From positions 3,315-67,314 of the forward strand of contig CAIXTV010000130.1 in the NCBI GenBank assembly GCA_903922465.1: DNA of 64,000 nt. The letters are read 5' to 3'. Under the pieces are notes generated by a model that was not told where the DNA came from, ran no database searches, and saw only the letters and a program-made list of their open reading frames with translations. The position numbers were made by a program, and so were the translations under genes. Below, piece after piece: positions 9,320 through 20,274 of this stretch (its first letter is position 1; every line of letters starts with the position of its first letter). Origin of the DNA: an uncultured bacterium. GTDB taxonomy: Bacteria > Bacteroidota > Bacteroidia > Bacteroidales > CAIXTV01.

Positions 9320-10801
9320 TTAGAAAGAAAGGTAAATAAAAGCTTGCGATTCGGCACTATAAAATTGATATATAATAAATATTAAAAAGAAGAAAACAAC
9401 TGATTTTACACTCCAATGCATGCTAGAAAAGATATTAAATGCTCCAGAATTTAACTTTAGAGGCAAAAAATGAAGAATAAATCCAAGTAACATGACAAGA
9501 AATGGGTACAAATATAAATTTATCCATTGACCTGCAACAGAAAAATCTGTTTTATAAAAAATCATCCGATAAGAATCAACAGCCATACTCATATTTCCTG
9601 ATTTAAATAGTATTACTGAGAATACTATAAAATGAAATGTTAGAAATATACTCATGAATTTGTATAGCGTTTTTGGAACAAAGTTTTTTATTTTCCCTCT
9701 TATCGATTGGGAGGCTATATCCCATGCAAGTGCCACTCCATGAGCGCTTCCCCACAAGATATAGGTCCATTTTGGTCCATGCCATATCCCGGAAATAATA
9801 AAAGTGAGCATTACTGCAAGCATAGTTCCAAAGATTGAGAATGAACGGAAACTAAATGACAAAGGATAAAATAGATATTCATTCAGCCAGCGGGAAAGTG
9901 TAATATGCCAACGTTTCCAAAAATCAGTAATATTCTGTGCAATAAAAGGTTGATTGAAATTATGCTGAAAACTAAAACCTAATAATAAGGCTATCCCTAA
10001 TACTATGTCTGTGTAACCTGCAAAATCGCAATAAATCTGCAGAGTTGCACCATAGGCGGCCATTAAATTCTCAAATCCGGTGAAAAGCGTCGGGGAATCA
10101 TACACTCTGTTGACAAAGTTGACCGCTATAAAGTCGGCAACGCACACCTTTTTAAACGCTCCCATGATAATCAGAAAGAATCCCCTATTTACATTCATTT
10201 CGGTGATCTTTGTTGGCTGATTAAATTGAGGTAATAAGTCTCTTGCCTTTGTAATAGGGCCAGCAATTATGTTTGGAAAGAAGGAAACATATAAAAGATA
10301 GTTAGTATATTTCTTTTCCGGGACATCAATGCTACCATAATATATGTCGAAGATATATGTTAGGGTTTTAAACATATAAAATGATATCCCAATAGGCTGA
10401 ACTATATTAAGCAAGAAGGGTGAAGGCTCGTTATAGAAGAATCCCCACCAACTTTGCAAAATAAAGTTCAAGTATTTGAAGAAAGCTAAACAACTAATAT
10501 TAATTACTAATGACGATATAAGCAGAAACCTTCGCTTCTTTATATTTTGTGATTTCGCCATAGCCTTTCCAATGAAAAAATCGGAGGAAGCCATGAAAAT
10601 AAGGAGCAGCACAAATGCTTCTCCCATCTTATAATAGAAAAACAAGCTAAAAAGCAATAAAAGTATATTCCTTACCTTAATATTATCAGCATAAAAGGCA
10701 TATAATATGTAGAATCCTGAAAACAATAATACAAACATTATCGAAATCAACTGCAATGGATTGTTCGCCTGAAAGCCAAATATATCAAATAGTGTCTCCA
10801 T
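9320..10801 (-). CDS. MBOAT family membrane O-acyltransferase (AlgI/DltB/PatA-like).
   Basis: 493 aa and polytopic. The conserved catalytic-His region is FWKRWHITLSRWLNEYLFYPL. Confidence 0.9.
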   Translation of the reverse strand: METLFDIFGFQANNPLQLISIMFVLLFSGFYILYAFYADNIKVRNILLLLFSLFFYYKMGEAFVLLLIFMASSDFFIGKAMAKSQNIKKRRFLLISSLVINISCLAFFKYLNFILQSWWGFFYNEPSPFLLNIVQPIGISFYMFKTLTYIFDIYYGSIDVPEKKYTNYLLYVSFFPNIIAGPITKARDLLPQFNQPTKITEMNVNRGFFLIIMGAFKKVCVADFIAVNFVNRVYDSPTLFTGFENLMAAYGATLQIYCDFAGYTDIVLGIALLLGFSFQHNFNQPFIAQNITDFWKRWHITLSRWLNEYLFYPLSFSFRSFSIFGTMLAVMLTFIISGIWHGPKWTYILWGSAHGVALAWDIASQSIRGKIKNFVPKTLYKFMSIFLTFHFIVFSVILFKSGNMSMAVDSYRMIFYKTDFSVAGQWINLYLYPFLVMLLGFILHFLPLKLNSGAFNIFSSMHWSVKSVVFFFLIFIIYQFYSAESQAFIYLSF

Positions 10802-10807
10802 TTTCTT

Positions 10808-12574
10808 TTACTTCACTTTCAGTTTATCACCAGGGTGCAATTTATCGTCCTTTAGTTTATTAAGTTTCCGTAATGCCTCTGCAGTGGTGCTGAATTTCTT
10901 TGCAATGCCAGAAAGATTGTCCCCGGAAACAACAGAGTAAACATTTTTGCTTGGGGAAGTTGCCTTTGTTTTGGGTGAAGGTGTTTTTGTGGTGGAATTT
11001 ACATTTAGCTCATTTGTAAAGAGATTAAGCTTTTGCCCAATCTTTATCTTGTTTTTCTTCAGGTGATTCCATTTGCTGATTTGTTTCACCGTTATGGCAA
11101 ATTTCTCTGCAATTGACGAAGGGGTATCTCCCTTTTTAACGACATACACAGTATTGGTTCCAACAGGATTCGAAGAGGGTTCTTCCTTTTTTTCAAATGT
11201 ATTTTCATTTGAAATGGTTTTATCTTCCTTATTTAAGAAGGGGATGCTATCAATTGGCATCCTAGTTTCAGTTAAGAGAGAAGAAGCTCCCTTGGCCTTT
11301 AGATATTCGGAATAGGAGTTCAAAAGGGCATTATACCACAACTCTGCTTTAAGATAATAGCCTTCGAAGGTCAAATGAACCTTATCGCGTTTAGCAAAAT
11401 GAATTTTAAGCCATTTCAACATCGAGAATTGCCCACCACTTATAGCGTAATAGTCGTAAAAAGCACAATCATTTTCTAACGCTATCTTGCGAGTGAGTTC
11501 AGAAAAGGCCTTACAGCTTGTAATTTCTTTCTTTCGATAATAAATATCCTGAGAGTTAGTGACAATTATGGAGGTTTCGGGAGAAGCATCCTTAATAGTT
11601 TTAATAATTTTCTTCAAATTATCTTCCAATTCAGGGGTGTTGAAGGTTTTTCTGTAAAAATCGTTAGCACCAAGGTCAATAATTACCAAATCGGGCTTGA
11701 GTTCCGCGAGTTGACTCCCCATAAGCGATTGCCGTAAGATGCTTTTGTATCCTGCACCATTTATTCCCACACTATTATATAGTATTCCTCCTGCTTCATC
11801 ACTCTCAATTAAAAGTCCATAACACTCGAAATAGCGCTGTGTGGAATCGGTTTTATTTACGAAAACTTCAATGGTATCGCAGGCAGAGGGTAAATTGATT
11901 TGAACGTAGGGCTTACTATTAAAGGTGTCGGTTTCTAAGTAAATAGGAATGTCAGTTGAGTAGCTTTTCATCTTTAATTGAAAGCTTTCGGGGCATTTCT
12001 TCAGGTATATTTTGATCGTTTTAAAATCGCTCCTTATGGTTCCCTGATGAAAGACTATTTTAAAGGACGCCGTTGAGTCGTAGGTTCGAATGGTGACACC
12101 ACTTATTCCCATGTCAAGAGGTTTTTCTTCCTGCATGACATTTCTTGAGTATTCCCATTTGCCTTCGCAGAAGGTTCGATAGTCATAAGCAGCATGGGTT
12201 TTTGCAGCTTTATAGGGAAAGACCATTCCCCGGCCACCATAACCAAATGTTTCCTGCAATTTGTTGCGTAAACGACCCGTAAATATGTCGGCTTGCAGGT
12301 GTGAGTCGCCAATGTGCAGGATTTTCACCCGCTTACTGCCCACTTGCTGCAGTTGTTTAAAGAAATGTGAGATGGAAGTGGGATTATTCCACTCGATATA
12401 GTTCTTATTATATTGAATAAAGGGGAATTCGTGGGTATATGCTTTTTGTTTCTCAATATAAGTTAACTGAGAGAGGGAATCCTTATTAATAGGAAGGGCT
12501 GTATTATTTTTAAAGGGCGTAAAAGCCATTAAAAAAAACGCCATCATCAGTAGGACAATATTTATTTGCTTCAT
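10808..12574 (-). CDS. Exported SGNH/GDSL-type acyl-hydrolase/transferase with two C-terminal LysM domains.
   Basis: Block I is ILHIGDSHLQAD and block V is RDKVHLTFEGY. LysM-like YVVKKGDTPSSIAEKFAITVKQISKWNHL..IKIGQKLNL and YSVVSGDNLSGIAKKFSTTAEALRKLNKL..LHPGDKLKV. Confidence 0.75.
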   Translation of the reverse strand: MKQINIVLLMMAFFLMAFTPFKNNTALPINKDSLSQLTYIEKQKAYTHEFPFIQYNKNYIEWNNPTSISHFFKQLQQVGSKRVKILHIGDSHLQADIFTGRLRNKLQETFGYGGRGMVFPYKAAKTHAAYDYRTFCEGKWEYSRNVMQEEKPLDMGISGVTIRTYDSTASFKIVFHQGTIRSDFKTIKIYLKKCPESFQLKMKSYSTDIPIYLETDTFNSKPYVQINLPSACDTIEVFVNKTDSTQRYFECYGLLIESDEAGGILYNSVGINGAGYKSILRQSLMGSQLAELKPDLVIIDLGANDFYRKTFNTPELEDNLKKIIKTIKDASPETSIIVTNSQDIYYRKKEITSCKAFSELTRKIALENDCAFYDYYAISGGQFSMLKWLKIHFAKRDKVHLTFEGYYLKAELWYNALLNSYSEYLKAKGASSLLTETRMPIDSIPFLNKEDKTISNENTFEKKEEPSSNPVGTNTVYVVKKGDTPSSIAEKFAITVKQISKWNHLKKNKIKIGQKLNLFTNELNVNSTTKTPSPKTKATSPSKNVYSVVSGDNLSGIAKKFSTTAEALRKLNKLKDDKLHPGDKLKVK

Positions 12575-14049
12575 GAATTGTGCTTTTTGCGGAATAAATA
12601 CAAGTTATACTCCACCATTAAAGCATTAAAGAGTTTCTCACTAATCATTTTTTGGCCTTTAGGGGTCAAATGACCATCATAGGAAGCCAGACCTTTTTCT
12701 GTCCAGGTTAAAATGGCATCTTCTCCCCCCATAATTTCATATAAATCCCAAAATGCACAACCCGCTTTGAGGGCTGCTCGCTTCTGCGCATCACGTATTT
12801 CGGACAACATGGGGTAAGATTCGTACTTTCCATCAATACTTCTTGCCATATCGCCTGCTCCTATCACCAGCACTGAGGTTTCGGGGGCTTTGGCCTTATA
12901 TCGCATGAAAAGTTTATAATATATTTGCTCGAGATTCTTACAATCTTTTTCGTTTTTTATGTAAGGCACCACATTGGCCCCATATTGAAACAAAACCAGC
13001 TTGGTGTGCAGGTCTTGAATTTGTTTTGCCAGAAAATCAGGCTGAATGTTCATCAAACCATCGCCTGAATGGCCACGAATTGCGTAGTTGTCCACCTGAA
13101 CACCCTTATCTCCGTCGAATAAGAGTCCATAAAAATCGGGGCTTATGCCCGAAATGAATTCAATTTTAATGGCCAATGGGTTAGTGGGAAGCTTTAGTTC
13201 GTGAAGGTTAAACTCAAAGGAGGCAGCAAGGGTATCCCTCAATATTATTTCGGAAGTTTTGGTGTCATAGACATTAATCAGGCAGGGAGTTTTAGCATTT
13301 CCATACATGAGGGTGATCGTTTTGTAGGAAGTTTGGAAATGATAGGAGACCCAAGCGTTGTGAAAGGCTACAATTTTCCCACTTTTACTACTCGAATCGT
13401 AGATTGTTTGATTTACGGTGGTGTCTTTTTCTTCGGAATGGTCTATAATATATTTGCTAAAGCGGAATACTGTTCCCGAAAGTCCATAATATCCACCTTT
13501 ATAGCGATTATGGAATACCGTATATCGTATCCAGTTGTCGCTGGAGGCGATGCTGTAGTCGACACTGGTGGCAATGTCGCAGAGAGGAACGAAACCCAGC
13601 CCATAACCCCCAAATTTCTGTTGAAATTTCTTTCTGATGAAGCAGCTAACCCGGTCGCCTTCCAATTGGGAGTCGCCATAGTGGGCAATGCGGAGTGATT
13701 TTGGATGAAGGCTATCGCCTAAGGCCACAAAGAAGCTATCTAAATAGGAAGAACCGAGGGTATCGGGGTTGAAAATAAAGGATTCGCCTTTTTTTCGTTT
13801 CAGTTCTTCCAGTTTTTTGAGGCTGAATTGGGCAGAAACGCTCACCGAATCTTCATCTTCATACTTATTGATGAGGCTATCGGCCATTTGGTTTTGGTTT
13901 ACTTTCCCTAAATTCAACAAAGTTTCCCATTTCATGAACCTAAGAGGGCTTCCGTCGGGCACATAGGCGCTAAATAGCAGAACCGTTGCCACTACCAGGG
14001 CATCGAACAGCAATATGACAGAAACAATTTCGAAGGCTTTTCCTTTCAT
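12571..14049 (-). CDS. Membrane-anchored SGNH/GDSL-like (DltD/AlgX-like) protein.
   Basis: N-terminal TM helix, block I RIAHYGDSQLEGDR, C-terminal SYDGHLTPKG. Its stop overlaps the next start (ATGA at 12571-12574). Confidence 0.65.
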   Translation of the reverse strand: MKGKAFEIVSVILLFDALVVATVLLFSAYVPDGSPLRFMKWETLLNLGKVNQNQMADSLINKYEDEDSVSVSAQFSLKKLEELKRKKGESFIFNPDTLGSSYLDSFFVALGDSLHPKSLRIAHYGDSQLEGDRVSCFIRKKFQQKFGGYGLGFVPLCDIATSVDYSIASSDNWIRYTVFHNRYKGGYYGLSGTVFRFSKYIIDHSEEKDTTVNQTIYDSSSKSGKIVAFHNAWVSYHFQTSYKTITLMYGNAKTPCLINVYDTKTSEIILRDTLAASFEFNLHELKLPTNPLAIKIEFISGISPDFYGLLFDGDKGVQVDNYAIRGHSGDGLMNIQPDFLAKQIQDLHTKLVLFQYGANVVPYIKNEKDCKNLEQIYYKLFMRYKAKAPETSVLVIGAGDMARSIDGKYESYPMLSEIRDAQKRAALKAGCAFWDLYEIMGGEDAILTWTEKGLASYDGHLTPKGQKMISEKLFNALMVEYNLYLFRKKHNS

Positions 14050-14066
14050 CGGGCTTTATTGGCGCA

Positions 14067-14303
14067 CTAAAGGGCTTTCGACTGTATGGTTTTGATTAAG
14101 TCGCCCACGTTGTCCATCCTTATGACTTCTCTAAGGTTGAATTTTATATGGAATTCGCTTTCCACGGCATGAATTAGATCCATGTGGTTGAGCGACGACC
14201 AATTTTCGATGTCGTTTGAGGTGGTGTCTTCCGAAACCACTATGCTGGTGTCTTTAAACACCTTCCCGAAGATGGGGTTCAATCTTTTTTTTATTTCGTC
14301 CAT
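14067..14303 (-). CDS. Acyl carrier protein (DltC-like, 78 aa).
   Basis: Small acidic four-helix-type sequence. The candidate phosphopantetheine site is in IENWSSLNHMDLIHAVESEF. Confidence 0.7.
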   Translation of the reverse strand: MDEIKKRLNPIFGKVFKDTSIVVSEDTTSNDIENWSSLNHMDLIHAVESEFHIKFNLREVIRMDNVGDLIKTIQSKAL

Positions 14304-14304
14304 G

Positions 14305-14955
14305 TTATTTAAGCAGATGTAAGGGTGAGGTTAACTGTAAACGGCTGTTTGAGGGTAAAAATTGTAATAAAGCCTCGTCGCCGGTGACTTTATGTTTCAG
14401 GCTAAAGCCCATTTTTTGATAGGCCGCCAAGGCATTTTCGTTGGTTTGTGCCAAAATGATTTCAACCGCGGGGGCTTGGGCCTGAAGTGCATGATGTTGT
14501 ATGAGTTTTCTTATCAAACCTTTCCCACGAAATGCCGCAAGGGTGTATACCGACTCGATTTGCAGGCAGCCTTTTGTGCGTTCGATGTGAATTCCTTTCA
14601 TGATTTCGTTTTTCGAGAGCCCTTCTTTGAAGTTAGCCGCCGGAAGGTATTCGCCAAGCAGGCTGCCGGTGATGATAGAAGAGGAAATTCCATACGTTCC
14701 TTCTATCCACGAACAGCAAGTAGCCACAGCTTCCCCATCGACGCAAGCAATGGCAAAGCCCGAAATGCAGAGTTGCTGACCTTCGAGGTCTTCGGCCAGC
14801 ATTTTGCGCATGAGTTCTATTAGTTCGGCTTGGCTCAGGCCAAAGATGCCGCAATAGCTTATCATTTCTGAGCCGCTTTTTTCGGCTTCGATGATGGCTT
14901 CGATAAGAAAATCAATATCCTCGGCTCCGGCCTGTCTTATTTCGCTTACTAACAT
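14305..14955 (-). CDS. GNAT family acyl-CoA N-acyltransferase.
   Basis: Motif A is VYTLAAFRGKGLIRKLI, followed by NENALAAYQKMGF. The track start at 14979 is TTG and overlaps the predicted -7 box, so I use the ATG at 14955 (MLVSEIRQAG..). Confidence 0.75.
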   Translation of the reverse strand: MLVSEIRQAGAEDIDFLIEAIIEAEKSGSEMISYCGIFGLSQAELIELMRKMLAEDLEGQQLCISGFAIACVDGEAVATCCSWIEGTYGISSSIITGSLLGEYLPAANFKEGLSKNEIMKGIHIERTKGCLQIESVYTLAAFRGKGLIRKLIQHHALQAQAPAVEIILAQTNENALAAYQKMGFSLKHKVTGDEALLQFLPSNSRLQLTSPLHLLK

Positions 14956-14976
14956 ATATATGGTTGAAAAATCGCG

Positions 14977-14984
14977 CAAAAGTA
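14977..14984 (-). promoter_or_regulatory. -7 box TACTTTTG for the GNAT-ACP-SGNH-SGNH-MBOAT operon.
   Basis: The plus strand reads caaaagta, 21 nt upstream of the ATG at 14955. Confidence 0.45.
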
Positions 14985-15163
14985 CTAATATTTGAGCTCG
15001 AACTAAGATAATAATTCAGGCAAATGCCTATCGTATTGATTATAGCATTGATGGGGCAAGCTGTTTTTCGGGTTTTATCCTTATAAAAACAAAAATATCA
15101 GCTTATTGTATGGGATTTTGGGCCTAAAACTTCCATCATCCAACAAAAAACACCCAAAATGAA

Positions 15164-15222
15164 AGCCACCTATTCGCTGATTATCTTTTTATTAGTTTAA
15201 ATAATCAGCAGAATTGGTGGCT
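15164..15222 (-). terminator. Long hairpin downstream of the 15347..16192 gene (possible terminator).
   Basis: The arms agccacctattcgctgattat and ataatcagcagaattggtggct are about 21 nt and complementary except for one mismatch and one bulge. T-rich runs flank the hairpin on both strands. Confidence 0.4.
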
Positions 15223-15346
15223 ATAAATATTTTTTATTCCGAAAAACGGCTTATTTAAGCAGTTTTTTGAGCAGAATTTAAGAACTTTCTTTTTGTAGGT
15301 TGAGCATTTCGTGGCCTTTTGCCCACAAAAAGCGGTATTTTTTTTT

Positions 15347-16192
15347 CTATCCTAAAACATAGGTATAGGTAGTCCCCATAACGGTTACATAGACGATTAA
15401 ATCGCATGAACCATCGCCATAATCCACCGTAATATTAGGATATCCTGCATTCACAATGTCTAATTTGCCTGAGGCAATAATCCAACGATAGATATTTAGG
15501 CAAAGTTTGCAATAGAGAGGGGAGGTAATGTTTACGCTGAAGGCTGCTCCGCTAATGTCGGTGCCATTTGCGGTGCCGGTTACATAATATTCGTCGTCGA
15601 AAGGATTCATATAAGTATCATACCCCGCTGTCCATTCGTTCTGACGTTGTGAGGTCCAATGAATTGTGCCTTCGGTGTAGGAAATGCTGGCATTTTGCAC
15701 GTCAACAGAGAAGTAAGGGTGCCCAAGACTGTTATGACCTAAGTTCTTAATCACTTGTGTGCCCTGAATTTGATGGTCGACGCCATTAATGTTCTCGAAA
15801 TAATTATCGAAAGTAGAAGTAATTGTAGAATTTGAATCGACATAGAGGCCGGTGGCATGCGATATTATCTTACCTCTTCTCACAACGCCGTCGTCGCCTG
15901 TGCAACTTGCGCCAAAATCGAGGGTTACAATTTTGTCGGGCCAAGCTCCTGTGATATAAAGGGTTGGACAGCCTACAATAGTATCATTTACGCTTTTCGA
16001 ACCCACCTGACGCAGGGCTTTTGAAATTTGACTGTAAGAACGGTTGAAGGTTGCTTCGGCCGTTGAATTGTCTTGTGCAGCACGATAGTTGGCTGTTTTG
16101 TCCTCAGTGGTTTTCTTACAGGATGAAAACATTAAACTTCCCATGGCAAAGAGCATTGCAAATGCAATTAGATAGCTTTTTAAATTTTTCAT
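15347..16192 (-). CDS. Hypothetical lipoprotein (281 aa).
   Basis: Lipobox MGSLMFSSC. I recognise no family. Confidence 0.55.
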   Translation of the reverse strand: MKNLKSYLIAFAMLFAMGSLMFSSCKKTTEDKTANYRAAQDNSTAEATFNRSYSQISKALRQVGSKSVNDTIVGCPTLYITGAWPDKIVTLDFGASCTGDDGVVRRGKIISHATGLYVDSNSTITSTFDNYFENINGVDHQIQGTQVIKNLGHNSLGHPYFSVDVQNASISYTEGTIHWTSQRQNEWTAGYDTYMNPFDDEYYVTGTANGTDISGAAFSVNITSPLYCKLCLNIYRWIIASGKLDIVNAGYPNITVDYGDGSCDLIVYVTVMGTTYTYVLG

Positions 16193-16708: not shown

Positions 16709-16890
16709 GGAAGAACTCGCCATTCCTAAATTCAGAATGGCGAGTTGTTCCAGAAGAAGTGGGCATTCCTCGTTCAGAATGGCGAGTTGTTCCAGAAGAA
16801 GTGGGCAGTCTGGATTCAGAATGGCGAGTTGTTCTGCTAGAAGTGGGCAGTTTGGATTCAGAATGGCGACTTCTCGGAGAAGAACTCGCC
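16709..16890. repeat. 42-bp tandem repeat, about 3.8 copies, bounded by hairpins.
   Basis: Units start at 16731, 16773, 16815 and 16857 (ttcagaatggcgagttgttccagaagaagtgggca...). 16709-16725 is the inverse complement of the unit core, giving a 17-bp stem with one mismatch. Confidence 0.9.
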
Positions 16891-17217: not shown

Positions 17218-20200
17218 TTATTCCCACATGGGGATGAGGGGCGAATGCATTTCTTCGCCAAACTGCCTTGCATCCTTCAAATTAAACCTTTTGTGGAGCT
17301 GAATGTAGCAATCGAAGGTAACTTTTCCCTCCTGGTCGGCCTTGAAATTGGTGTTCCAATAATTATTCATGGCATAGAGGAACAAATCGGAGGTCATGGA
17401 TATGCGGTCTTTCCATGCACGCGAGCCTTTGTTGAGGGGCCTTTCGTCGGTGATACTTCCCAACTCAAACAGAGCGGCTTGGGGGCTGCAAACGGTGGCT
17501 CCGTTGTCGTCGTTCGAGATATCTATCCAGCGTTGAACCGAGAAAAAGTCCTTGTTAGACCCGGGTATCTGACTTTTTCCCGGTATAAAGAAGGTGTCGG
17601 AGATGCCCACGCGGTCGAGCGGCCCCGAAATGTCGAAAGGAAACACAATGTGCAGGCCTTCTTTTTCTCTGATGGCCTTCTTATCGATTGTGCAACTGAG
17701 TTTTATGTAGTTCAGCCCATGATAAAAGCTAATCTGATAGCTAACTTGATGTGTTCCCTCCATATTGCAGTTTATCTTGATGGTTTTTGTGATGATGCCG
17801 TTTTCGCTTTCCTCAATATTTTTCACAACAGAGGTGGTGCGATTGGCAGGGTCGAAACCTTTGACATACAATGCCTGATTCAAGCCCTTGAAATCGGCAG
17901 TATTCACCCATTCTTTGTCTAAATACTTGAGTTGTCGCAAAGCGCCGCTGAGGCTGTCTATCGTATAGCTGTATTGGTCGATAGGCATTTCTTGTTTTCG
18001 CTTGCTCGACACAAAAGTAAACTTCTTGCTGCCCGAAGCCGCCACGTTTTTCGCCAAAAAACAAACATTGCCGTTGTTCAAATGCTGAATAAAGCTGAAT
18101 TCACCGTTTTCGTCCATCACTCCATTGCCCTTAATGTTGCTTGGGAGGCTAATTTCGACATAAGCCGAGCGCATATAGGGCAAGGTGTTGTAAACCACCA
18201 GGGTTTTTGGGCTAGGGTTTTCGGGAAGTAAGACTTTTTCGATTAGGGCGATGTATTTTTTGGTCGAATCGATGAAAGCTTTTTTGTAGTTCCACTGATT
18301 GATGGCGAAAGCATCGTCGGGGGCCGAAATACTATTCCATGCACCCCAGGTGTGCTCGTGAAACATCACCACATTTTTGCGTGCTTCGATGAAGTTTTCG
18401 GGCTGAACCGTTTTTTCGGGCTTGATGTTGGCCAACAATTGCAGTTGCTCAACTTTGTCGCTCAGTATTCTGTTCTCGCATTCTTCAGCCGCCGTTGAAT
18501 ATGCCCCATCTTCCCAGTAGGGAGTGAAGTCGCCACTCAAAACAGGCAAATCTTTGCCATATTTTTGTTCGAAACGCTGCATCATATCGTCCACATTGGC
18601 GATGATAATCTTAGGTGAGACATATTTTAGGTTCCAATCGCGCACAAAATTGCTTAAATTGGTATCCAATGGGCCGTTGTCCGACTTAATGGTGTATCTG
18701 AGCTGAATCATATCGTAAGGATATTGGGCCGAATCGAGTTTATTGATATAAATGCTCAACTTTTCCTTCATCTTATTGCCCAATTCAGGAAAAGGAATGC
18801 CGTGAAAGGCGCCATAACCGAGGCCTGCCGTCCAAAGTAAGACTTTTTCGTTGCTCTTGGTCGATTTCCAATAAAAAGGTTTGTCGCCTAACTTGCGATA
18901 AATCGAGCCAATTCGCTCGCCCCCGTCAGGTGTTTCGGGAATATAATTGGGTCCGTTCGATAAATATTTAAATCCGCCGGCCAAAAGGGCATCAACGGTG
19001 CTCCAACTAATACCCGGAATATCACTCAACATGGCAGAGGTGATGTTAAAGCCATATTTCTTCTTCAAAATGCCTGCATATTCACTAATCCAGCCAAGTT
19101 CAGGGGCCGAACACAGGCCTGTCATCACGCCTGCATAGAATGATGTTAAACAAATGCTGTTATTTTTTACGGCATCGATGAATCTTGCTTTGTCTTTGCC
19201 CCTTGCGTTGGCAAAAAAGTATTCAACAGGCCAAAGAGTCTCTTCATTCCACACAAAACGGCTGCCTTTAGGGTAATTTGCCGTGCGGTCAATCATATCC
19301 AAGGCATCCATGATGTTCTGTTGCTGTATTTTCATCACATCATCCTGAAAATGTGAGTAACCAATGTCGTTATGGCTGTGATGTATGATGTCAACTTCTC
19401 TCCTAATCACCGGATTTTGCATGACGCTAAGCTCATACACCACCTTATTCCCCAATTTCAGAACAGTATTAAGCTGAAGGGGGGCGCTCACGGTATCTAA
19501 AGGAATTTCAAGACTGTTAAAACCTTCATTAACCGCCACTTCAATTGGCTTTTGATTGATGATGAGGGTGATTTTCTTCTCATTTGGATAAATATGATCG
19601 ATGTAAACCTGAAGAAGTTGCTTAATGCCTTTGTCGGTGTTCATTAAGAAAGGAGTTGCGGTAATGAGTGCTTTCTCTTTATAAGGATATCGGAAAACCA
19701 TAAACCAATCGTTGCGGTTTTCGGCCATTCCTGTCATCGAAAGACTCAAAGGCTTGCCCGCAGTGAGGAGTTTACGGGGAACACGCAAATACATATCGCC
19801 AAAAAGGTCTTTATGCACATCGGTTTTTGTGGCCGAGAAAACCACTTTCACCGAATCTTTACCCGAAAACGACCAAACTAAAGGAGGTTTTTGGTTTTGT
19901 TGGATGGTGATTTTCAGGTAATTTACCCCGTTGATGCTGAGTTGGAAAGAACTCACCCCAAAGCTGGTACCACTCGAGTGTCCCGATAGCCAATAGAAGT
20001 AATAATAATCCTTATCGAGCACTTGTGGCAGACTTTCAGTTTCCCAACTAATGGTTTTCTTGCCATCGGTGCATCTTGTGAGCAAGGCATCCTTGGCAAA
20101 ATAGGCTGATGATGAATAATAGTTTAAAATTTCGCCCGAAATGTCCTTTTCAAAGCCATTCATTAGGTTTTGTTTCCCGAAAACGGGGAGGTCGCGCTGT

Positions 20201-20274
20201 GCAAACAGCCCTTGTTGGCTCAAAATGAGCATTAAGGTGAGCAGAAGTCTTGTGCTTAGTTTTGTTATTTTCAT
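17218..20274 (-). CDS. Secreted GH38-like glycoside hydrolase (alpha-mannosidase-like), 1018 aa.
   Basis: Signal peptide. The metal-site-like motif DIIHHSHNDIGYSH resembles the GH38 N-terminal HSHxD signature, and the size fits. The family assignment is tentative. Confidence 0.5.
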   Translation of the reverse strand: MKITKLSTRLLLTLMLILSQQGLFAQRDLPVFGKQNLMNGFEKDISGEILNYYSSSAYFAKDALLTRCTDGKKTISWETESLPQVLDKDYYYFYWLSGHSSGTSFGVSSFQLSINGVNYLKITIQQNQKPPLVWSFSGKDSVKVVFSATKTDVHKDLFGDMYLRVPRKLLTAGKPLSLSMTGMAENRNDWFMVFRYPYKEKALITATPFLMNTDKGIKQLLQVYIDHIYPNEKKITLIINQKPIEVAVNEGFNSLEIPLDTVSAPLQLNTVLKLGNKVVYELSVMQNPVIRREVDIIHHSHNDIGYSHFQDDVMKIQQQNIMDALDMIDRTANYPKGSRFVWNEETLWPVEYFFANARGKDKARFIDAVKNNSICLTSFYAGVMTGLCSAPELGWISEYAGILKKKYGFNITSAMLSDIPGISWSTVDALLAGGFKYLSNGPNYIPETPDGGERIGSIYRKLGDKPFYWKSTKSNEKVLLWTAGLGYGAFHGIPFPELGNKMKEKLSIYINKLDSAQYPYDMIQLRYTIKSDNGPLDTNLSNFVRDWNLKYVSPKIIIANVDDMMQRFEQKYGKDLPVLSGDFTPYWEDGAYSTAAEECENRILSDKVEQLQLLANIKPEKTVQPENFIEARKNVVMFHEHTWGAWNSISAPDDAFAINQWNYKKAFIDSTKKYIALIEKVLLPENPSPKTLVVYNTLPYMRSAYVEISLPSNIKGNGVMDENGEFSFIQHLNNGNVCFLAKNVAASGSKKFTFVSSKRKQEMPIDQYSYTIDSLSGALRQLKYLDKEWVNTADFKGLNQALYVKGFDPANRTTSVVKNIEESENGIITKTIKINCNMEGTHQVSYQISFYHGLNYIKLSCTIDKKAIREKEGLHIVFPFDISGPLDRVGISDTFFIPGKSQIPGSNKDFFSVQRWIDISNDDNGATVCSPQAALFELGSITDERPLNKGSRAWKDRISMTSDLFLYAMNNYWNTNFKADQEGKVTFDCYIQLHKRFNLKDARQFGEEMHSPLIPMWE

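Follow-up and report, generated by a model that had tools for sequence, protein, structure and literature searches.

We analysed a 64,000-nucleotide stretch of DNA (hereafter the window) from an uncultured Bacteroidales bacterium (GenBank assembly GCA_903922465.1, contig CAIXTV010000130.1, positions 3,315 to 67,314 of the forward strand), in which five minus-strand open reading frames (ORFs) at 9320-14955 form an operon encoding, in order, a GNAT-fold acetyltransferase, a small acyl carrier protein (ACP), two SGNH proteins (SGNH1 and SGNH2) and an MBOAT. The operon probably encodes a carrier-dependent PatA-type MBOAT/SGNH system acting on murein. Our fuller explanation, a carrier-protein-fed version of the O-acetylpeptidoglycan (OAP) cluster ape1b-ape1c-pat in which the GNAT has a defined role and a ligase acts in trans, is more tentative, and we hold it with somewhat less than even confidence. 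The new part is the joining of a GNAT and an ACP, usually together with a DltA-like ligase, to an MBOAT with a fused shuttle motif; the SGNH-SGNH-MBOAT core has been known since 2005. The family assignments made in a preliminary description of this DNA (a GNAT, an ACP, two SGNH proteins, one with two LysM domains, and an MBOAT) were upheld by Pfam, NCBIfam and profile searches.

The SGNH1-SGNH2-MBOAT core

Judged by gene order and homology, the three distal genes are the ape1b-ape1c-pat OAP cluster, which has been predicted since 2005. Weadge et al. described this cluster in B. thetaiotaomicron, B. fragilis and P. gingivalis, and murein O-acetylation in Bacteroides has been measured at 27-69% (PMC1199599). 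The gene order in the window matches ape1b-ape1c-pat, and it is by gene order that we equate the two, using the description of Bacteroides and Porphyromonas in PMC1199599. In a scan of one genome per species, SGNH1 relatives were present in at least 600 species, nearly all of them Bacteroidota plus Ignavibacteria, and the order SGNH1-SGNH2-MBOAT was the conserved core in most of the best 80 loci, including those from Bacteroides metagenome-assembled genomes (MAGs; L026, L032 and L036). Among these 80 best SGNH1 loci, a GNAT and an ACP accompany the core only in the window's nearest relatives. The lack of a carrier protein that typifies OAP systems does not hold for the window, where an ACP gene of the same operon precedes SGNH1 by 17 nt.

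SGNH1 (12571-14049; this and the other features of the operon are on the minus strand) is a 492-aa Ape1-like protein that is anchored in the membrane by its N-terminus and contains an inserted domain, and SGNH2 (10808-12574) is a 588-aa Ape1-like protein with a signal or anchor sequence and two C-terminal LysM repeats. Both have hydrophobic N-termini, and Lipase_GDSL_2 scored above its Pfam cutoff in both. The best solved match was the 4K3U/4K40 series for the SGNH1 profile (4.8e-21) and 4K3U for the SGNH2 sequence (7.9e-23); the search tool labels these entries only 'GDSL-like lipase', and we take them to be N. meningitidis Ape1. The two proteins are paralogues, 25% identical, and contain the large insertion between block I and the other blocks that is characteristic of Ape1. 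An Ape1-family Ser-His-Asp triad is encoded next to the MBOAT, with the Asp of SGNH1 two residues before the His (DGH) rather than three. The catalytic residues S127, N359 and H460 of SGNH1 are kept in 87/87 orthologues and D458 in 83/87, while S91, N304, D397 and H400 of SGNH2 are kept in 72-73 of 73. Neither protein matched the DltD family in Pfam or NCBIfam, and there was no ALGX match to the AlgX/AlgJ-type SGNH-like domain (PF16822) for either.

The LysM repeats of SGNH2 (aa 477-518, 11021-11146; aa 545-587, 10814-10942) matched Pfam PF01476 at 5.2e-30 over two stretches, and the region drew LytE/MltD-type LysM matches in the PDB. Of 79 SGNH2 orthologues, just 13 carry LysM, and nearly all of these belong to the window's clade. 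Together with the Ape1 homology, these repeats point to murein as the likely target; the earlier reading of LysM as a sign of a peptidoglycan target is therefore kept, with the Ape1 homology adding to it. The companion suggestion, that both SGNH proteins deliver the acyl group, is not supported. As both are Ape1-like and the characterised Ape1 is an esterase, one of them may remove the group rather than add it.

The MBOAT (9320-10801, 493 aa) is PatA/DltB-like. It matched Pfam PF03062 at 1e-20 and the DltB structures 6BUG/8JEM at 1.6e-21, and its RWHITLS and IWHG motifs align with RWHMSLS and FWHG of DltB. Its score of 178 bits on the DltB model TIGR04091 is below the cutoff of 375, which places it outside the DltB equivalog. 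The MBOAT fold comes with the catalytic histidines, H299 and H341, which are kept in 91/91 MBOATs. The protein ends in ...AFIYLSF, in which FIYLSF (9323-9340) is a fused FxYxxF hexapeptide of the PatA/AlgI type, not the DltB type; FxYxxF is an acyl-Tyr shuttle whose function has been shown for PatA and DltX (PMC12148441). F.Y..F stands at the C-terminus of 81 of the 87 complete MBOATs in related loci, and the shuttle tyrosine, Y490, is kept in 86 of 91. With an MBOAT of this fused-shuttle type encoded beside a carrier protein, the earlier view that the operon combines Dlt and Pat logic was borne out. On a crude neighbour-joining tree, built on a quick alignment, the MBOAT of the window belongs to a clade in which an accompanying ACP is the rule, apart from the large clade of ACP-less OAP triads.

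The carrier protein and the GNAT

As a single sequence the ACP (14067-14303, 78 aa) is sub-threshold, with 18.8 bits on PP-binding against a cutoff of 20.8; the profile of its family found 2LML, a solved structure labelled 'putative acyl carrier protein', at 6e-28, as well as many AcpPs with E-values from 1e-9 to 1e-6. The NCBIfam models that it matched were generic ACP models, all below cutoff, and the DltC model was not among them. The predicted phosphopantetheine site is Ser37 (codon 14193-14195) in NWSSLNH, a conserved serine at the start of helix 2 of the four-helix carrier fold, and across 28 aligned family members neither W35 nor S37 varies. Residue 36, just before Ser37, is most often D, the window and its closest relative have S there, and other members have T or N, so that the WSSL of the window falls within the variation of the family. 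The modifiable serine and ACP fold supposed earlier for this protein are supported by the invariant Ser37 and the solved homologue. A tblastn search of the 64-kb window with E. coli AcpS returned nothing that would represent a phosphopantetheinyl transferase, the gene for which could be elsewhere in the genome.

The GNAT (14305-14955, 216 aa) is predicted to be cytoplasmic, and neither it nor the ACP has a hydrophobic N-terminus. Its start is the first ATG, the same one that is picked by the ENA gene callers. The protein matched Pfam Acetyltransf_1 at 9e-9 and its AlphaFold2 model has a mean pLDDT of 93.2, with Foldseek and sequence searches both returning amine and N-alpha acetyltransferases as its relatives (PaiA, YpeA, Ard1/Naa50 and SpeG). 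Both the GNAT fold and its beta4-alpha3 loop are present: in the CoA-pyrophosphate loop after beta4, R143-G144-x-G146, the three named residues are invariant in the GNAT family, and the final position of the (Q/R)xxGxG/A motif is Ile, not G/A. The family is sharply bounded, with 298 clusters (50% identity) at E <= 1e-30 against 433 at E <= 1e-10.

A ligA-GNAT-ACP-MBOAT cassette in relatives

A search with a GNAT alignment gathered 64 GNAT loci from metagenomes, the neighbourhoods of which were called from simple six-frame ORFs and phmmer with the window's proteins as queries. The canonical cassette across these loci is ligA-GNAT-ACP-MBOAT. ligA is directly upstream of the GNAT gene in 42 of the 49 loci with enough upstream sequence (44 when two ORF-calling artefacts are counted). 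On the downstream side, an ACP is the next gene in 38 of 51 assessable loci, and 33 of 39 loci have an MBOAT no more than 6 kb away. Across many rearranged cassettes the ACP keeps its place directly upstream of SGNH1 or the MBOAT. The ligA product scored 302 bits on TIGR01733 (cutoff 317) and approximately 300 bits, over its full length, on two DltA models, below their cutoffs (476 for DltA), and is predicted to be a DltA-like ligase that adenylates an amino acid. The consensus of its family has the A3-A10 motifs of nonribosomal peptide synthetases (NRPSs), including FDxS, the Asp of which binds the substrate alpha-amine in adenylation (A) domains. The ligase family is very large: a search of the protein database with the ligase of L098 gave 7460 hits at E <= 1e-30 among its candidates.

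Natural fusions link the GNAT to its neighbours on both sides, as GNAT::ACP (P0130, P0305 and P0329) and as ligA::GNAT (P0287 and P0182). In an AlphaFold2 model of P0130 the GNAT part is confident and the ACP part, at a pLDDT below 50, is mis-folded as strands. The expectation that the GNAT would be co-conserved in related genomes proved correct for both the ACP and the MBOAT, with GNAT and ACP fused in some genomes. The proposal that the GNAT replaces DltA is not supported. With ligA directly upstream in 42-44 of 49 loci and ligase::GNAT fusions in existence, the GNAT, firmly tied to the ACP and normally accompanying a DltA-like ligase, is best read from these neighbourhoods as an extra component.

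Within the window's clade, ligA, GNAT and ACP are found together in L010, L011, L086, L098 and L157, and GNAT and ACP alone in the window, L150/L151, L009/L099 and L096/L097. An acetate-CoA-ligase-like gene, ligB (651 bits on PRK04319 against a cutoff of 729), stands with a second ACP downstream of the MBOAT in L007, L008, L016, L156 and the P0042 contig, and this pair would represent an alternative carrier-loading module on the same OAP chassis. Four of these loci (L007:13340-16733, L008, L016 and L156:13369-16739) are sister OAP clusters with ligB and the second ACP and without a GNAT. One contig of 4.86 Mb carries both an OAP cluster with ligB and ACP and a separate MBOAT-ligA-GNAT-ACP cassette, and several contigs hold two or three ligA genes.

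The cassettes vary in other ways. In many of them the MBOAT is paired with a protein of approximately 320 aa, of no Pfam family, in place of the Ape1-like proteins. The gene for this protein follows the MBOAT in non-OAP cassettes (L105:5764-6723, L110:5156-6118, L094:12474-13436 and L152:12874-13860), one member has a weak DUF1574 match (0.0023), and the protein is presumably a periplasmic partner of an undescribed family. More elaborate variants are seen at L091:6224-10645 (also L092, L093 and L119), L107:7496-12353 and L139. One of these encodes a protein of approximately 1006 aa with two AMP-binding stretches and two flanking GNAT genes, facing a divergent MBOAT-ACP-SGNH1; another locus has four GNAT paralogues, and in a locus of 20 kb there are four MBOATs together with at least four ACPs. 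The six-gene relative L157 has an additional 168-aa GNAT between SGNH2 and MBOAT (L157:13234-13740). In L006 (8547-8828), a close relative, ligA-GNAT is followed by a 281-nt gap and then SGNH1, with no ACP detected in it by hidden Markov model or tblastn, which may reflect ACP loss or a sequence error.

The ligase-less form and its maintenance

The closest relative of the window, MAG GCA_037144095.1 (L150/L151), has the same ligase-less five-gene operon, intact and in a syntenic setting, with a 283-aa lipoprotein gene before GNAT-ACP-SGNH1-SGNH2-MBOAT and RecQ and OmpH after it. Amino-acid identities between the two genomes are 63% for the GNAT, 81% for the ACP, 70% for SGNH1, 67% for SGNH2 and 84% for the MBOAT. 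Because the nonsynonymous rate (dN) between the window and L151 is 0.09-0.29 over the five genes while the synonymous rate (dS) is saturated (dN 0.12 and dS approximately 2 for the ACP), all five genes appear to be under purifying selection, and the operon to be functional rather than decaying.

The other ligase-less lineages are placed beside ligase-bearing relatives on the neighbour-joining tree, which suggests that the cis ligase has been lost repeatedly. The window is a derived, ligase-less version of the cassette, and its six-gene relatives are the more informative form. It is plausible that the ligase acts in trans, as genomes often hold several cassettes or ligA paralogues.

A model for acyl transfer and its alternatives

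The families, catalytic residues, synteny, co-occurrence and fusions described above are the observations from which we infer a chemistry, a cargo and a target. In the proposed model, holo-ACP would carry an acyl thioester in the cytoplasm via Ser37. The GNAT would act directly on the ACP, and we prefer a scheme in which a DltA-like ligase first loads an aminoacyl group onto the carrier and the GNAT then N-acetylates this group with acetyl-CoA, a step that would parallel a tailoring domain between the A and thiolation (T) domains of an NRPS module. In the window the ligase would have to be supplied in trans, by a gene at another place in the genome. From homology to DltB/DltC and PatA, we expect the MBOAT to take the acyl group from the ACP at the inner face of the membrane using His299 and His341, and move it onto Tyr490 of its own FIYLSF shuttle on the periplasmic side. 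A serine of an SGNH protein, either S127 of the anchored SGNH1 or S91 of SGNH2, would then pick the group up, as homology to PatB, DltD and Ape1 suggests, and esterify a sugar hydroxyl of peptidoglycan, with SGNH2 tethered to murein by its two LysM repeats. One of the two Ape1-like paralogues may instead be a de-acylating esterase. That the ACP is the donor for the MBOAT is supported by the sister loci, which fill the same ACP position with other loaders (ligA, or ligB with a second ACP). A tailoring role for the GNAT is favoured by the fixed order ligase-GNAT-carrier, the fusions on both sides and the fold, which resembles those of amine acetyltransferases, and also by the consideration that a carrier protein is needed only if the acyl group is activated by adenylation.

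Extended to its relatives, this model would mean that in many diderms, among them Bacteroidota and Ignavibacteria, the ester groups placed on peptidoglycan, or on some other glycan of the envelope, derive from amino acids (N-acetyl-aminoacyl groups being one possibility) and are not simple acetate. The pathway would be Dlt-like and previously undescribed, with a DltA-like ligase loading a dedicated carrier, a dedicated GNAT tailoring the cargo on it and a PatA-type MBOAT with a fused Tyr shuttle exporting that cargo to Ape1-like SGNH transferases. The window would then be a ligase-in-trans or an acetyl-only member of the group. We consider this generalisation possible and, at present, doubtful.

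Several observations weigh against the model. The statement in the preliminary description that the operon lacks DltA holds across the whole 64-kb window, where tblastn with six ligases gave a best E of 0.16. Nor did a ligase turn up at 10 kb or less from the operon of the closest relative, and the ligase-less lineages L009/L099 and L096/L097 have no ligase adjoining, only unrelated housekeeping genes. A look for alternative loaders beside the three ligase-less lineages likewise showed nothing but such genes, these absences being read from MAGs and weak evidence for that reason. At least three seemingly independent losses of ligA with the GNAT and ACP kept fit a GNAT that charges the carrier itself, and L017, in the window's clade, has ligA and ACP without a GNAT. 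We know of no enzyme that N-acetylates an aminoacyl-S-carrier protein in envelope acylation. LysM domains also bind chitin-like glycans, and no PatB (Ape2)-family sequence was found among PDB matches to the SGNH1 profile at E <= 1 or to SGNH2 at E <= 0.1. Finally, PatA-type MBOATs take acetyl-CoA directly (PMC12148441).

That last property bears on two of the alternatives. In the relay of the preliminary description, the GNAT itself would charge holo-ACP from an acyl-CoA, most simply with acetyl, and the MBOAT, Tyr shuttle and SGNH proteins would pass the group to murein without a ligase. Given the genes present, no other scheme is self-contained, and this one would account for the ligase-less GNAT-ACP-OAP operons seen in at least three lineages under purifying selection, for the GNAT::ACP fusions and for the invariant CoA-pyrophosphate loop. 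The sister loci with an acetate-CoA-ligase-like enzyme and an ACP likewise hint at acetyl-ACP as a cargo in the clade. We nevertheless think it unlikely. The presence of the GNAT with a DltA-like ligase in most loci, in some as a fusion, would be odd for two independent loaders, and where the MBOAT can use acetyl-CoA, a transfer from CoA to ACP is an extra step with no obvious gain. The precedent is also weaker than had been stated, since the GNAT domains in polyketide synthase (PKS) loading modules of the CurA/GphF type are now described as decarboxylating malonyl-ACP loaded by an acyltransferase (AT) (PMC10127204), and no CurA/GphF GNAT-like (GNAT_L) domain was among the best 60 sequence matches or the top 50 fold matches of the window GNAT. 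If, on the other hand, the MBOAT uses acetyl-CoA as PatA does, the operon could be an ordinary OAP cluster with Ape1-like proteins serving as transferase and esterase, and with the GNAT and ACP as a separate co-transcribed module or a remnant of a cassette that lost its ligase. The SGNH1-SGNH2-MBOAT triad does work without ACP or GNAT in most Bacteroidota, L012, L013 and L018 lack an ACP although they belong to the same MBOAT clade, the MBOAT has the fused FxYxxF of CoA-using enzymes, and the window lacks the ligase. We judge this rather improbable given the close spacing behind a single conserved promoter block (1 nt between GNAT and ACP, 17 nt between ACP and SGNH1), a GNAT and an ACP that remain intact under purifying selection in two genomes between which dS is saturated, and an ACP that stays directly upstream of SGNH1 or the MBOAT through many rearrangements and whose linkage follows the MBOAT phylogeny.

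A further alternative is that the GNAT uses acyl-S-ACP as its donor, in the manner of FeeM, SbzI and SbzC, and acylates, on N or O, an acceptor in the cytoplasm (for instance a lipid-linked precursor), with the MBOAT and SGNH proteins acting on another substrate. GNATs that draw an acyl group from a ligase-loaded carrier are documented (PMC6331615), the ligase-GNAT-ACP trio resembles SbzB/SbzC/SbzG, and the SbzI-SbzG complex is among the fold matches of the GNAT, at rank 26. This arrangement would leave the near-universal MBOAT right after the ACP unexplained, the invariant loop residues suggest CoA binding, and the problem of the ligase-less operons persists, so that we regard it as very improbable. 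Two other roles for the GNAT were considered. Regulation of the ligase by Lys acetylation, in the manner of AcuA/Pat, was rejected as being at odds with both the GNAT::ACP fusions and the ligase-less operons, and a malonyl-ACP decarboxylase of the PKS GNAT_L type was rated low, no specific similarity having been found among the best sequence and fold matches.

Operon layout, promoter and neighbouring genes

Re-reading the ORFs confirmed the tight packing that had been described, with intergenic distances, in operon order, of 1, 17, -4 (an ATGA overlap) and 6 nt. A Bacteroidota-type -7 promoter box, TACTTTTG, can be read from the sequence at 14977-14984, 21 nt upstream of the GNAT ATG. The position given for this box earlier is correct; the claim that it is the only one is not, as the minus strand of 9320-15346 has five matches to TAnnTTTG, including a second in the same intergenic region (15097-15090). 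Because TAnnTTTG occurs approximately 0.8 times per kb per strand in the window, the match by itself is not significant. In L151 the region upstream of the orthologous GNAT has diverged except for a 20-nt block, TACTTTTGCGCGATTTTTCA, which is identical to that of the window, and this conservation supports a real promoter or leader as the likely function of the block. A scan for sigma-70 promoters, a type not relevant to Bacteroidota, gave counts equal to the shuffle expectation, and a terminator scan found none after the MBOAT.

GC content climbs along the operon, from 0.33 in the MBOAT to 0.47 in the GNAT, with third-position GC (GC3) going from 0.34 to 0.49-0.61. The orthologous operon of L151 has a weaker gradient (MBOAT 0.33, GNAT 0.38), and the 12-20 kb stretch of the window has a GC content of 0.42-0.44, against 0.367 for the whole. 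Upstream of the operon lies a 281-aa lipoprotein-like gene (15347-16192) of no Pfam family, syntenic and 81% identical in the closest relative. Beyond it is a 1018-aa gene (17218-20274) with no Pfam match on record, in which the stretch HHSHNDIGY may be a feature like those of GH38 mannosidases. In the gap of approximately 1 kb between these two genes, a 42-bp tandem repeat (16730-16869; 3.3 copies, 89% matches) yields spurious repetitive ORFs on both strands.

Comparison with known systems

MBOAT-SGNH acylation has been divided into two types, namely Dlt, with a carrier donor and a separate DltX shuttle, and the others, with an acyl-CoA donor, a fused shuttle and no carrier (PMC12148441). The same 2025 mechanistic paper states that MBOAT/SGNH pathways other than Dlt lack a carrier protein. 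The operon resembles Dlt in having a small carrier next to an MBOAT that aligns with DltB, an SGNH protein outside the membrane and an acyl-Tyr shuttle motif, and its relatives add a full-length DltA-like ligase. It differs from Dlt in that the window has no DltA and has an extra GNAT, its shuttle motif belongs to the MBOAT itself and not to a DltX microprotein, its SGNH proteins are Ape1-like instead of DltD-family members, its carrier drew no match to a DltC model, and the MBOAT and ligase scores are below the NCBIfam equivalog cutoffs. The host is a diderm of the Bacteroidota, a phylum that, to our knowledge, lacks teichoic acids. By membership, then, the operon is not a Dlt system, having no DltA, no DltD, no separate DltX and a DltB score under the cutoff. 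A DltA-like ligase and DltC-like carrier also operate in a Gram-negative in the AlmEFG system of V. cholerae, which aminoacylates lipid A with glycine. AlmEFG differs in that its final transferase, AlmG, is an LpxL-type acyltransferase of the cytoplasmic face, with no MBOAT/SGNH relay and no GNAT.

The likeness to OAP systems (PatA, PatB and Ape1) extends to an MBOAT with catalytic His and the fused C-terminal FxYxxF, two Ape1-family SGNH proteins upstream of it in the identical order of ape1b-ape1c-pat, and SGNH proteins that are exported or anchored and probably directed to murein, in the window via LysM. The window departs from them through its cytoplasmic carrier and GNAT (and, in relatives, the DltA-like ligase), PatA itself using acetyl-CoA, through LysM repeats fused to one SGNH protein, and through the lack of a detectable PatB (Ape2)-family member. 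With PatB absent and a carrier protein present, the operon is not a canonical PatAB system either.

For the GNAT and ACP, the closest parallels in gene order are the A-(tailoring)-T modules of NRPSs and the GNAT-ACP didomains of PKSs (CurA, GphF and LynB1), which share the order adenylation enzyme, GNAT, carrier, the A::GNAT and GNAT::ACP fusions, and a GNAT-fold protein acting on carrier-bound cargo. Here, in contrast, the proteins are free-standing and the output would pass to a membrane MBOAT, not to a ketosynthase (KS) or condensation (C) domain, and the PKS GNAT domains decarboxylate malonyl-ACP (PMC10127204) and showed no specific similarity to the window GNAT among its best sequence and fold matches. 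FeeM, SbzI and SbzC (PMC6331615) likewise have a GNAT encoded with an adenylate-forming enzyme and a small carrier, with structural evidence for GNAT-carrier contact (8ZT4). For these enzymes, which belong to secondary metabolism, the acyl-carrier is the donor and a small molecule the acceptor, whereas the neighbour here is an envelope MBOAT/SGNH system.

The preliminary description knew of no characterised system of this composition. That no longer holds for the SGNH-SGNH-MBOAT core, which is the OAP cluster of PMC1199599, and it still holds for the GNAT and ACP added to it: no described ligase-GNAT-ACP-MBOAT system was found in the literature searched, which had most subscription journals outside it. 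Should an amino acid or its N-acetyl derivative prove to be the cargo, diderm murein, or some other envelope polymer, would bear a modification of a chemistry not yet described. The control of lysozyme and autolysins, resistance to antimicrobial peptides and recognition by the immune system could then be influenced, in a phylum that is dominant in the microbiomes of the gut and the environment. The division between Dlt and the other MBOAT-SGNH pathways is broken by this operon and its large family, as they place a fused-shuttle, PatA-like MBOAT with a dedicated carrier protein, a GNAT and usually a DltA-like amino-acid ligase in Gram-negative lineages.

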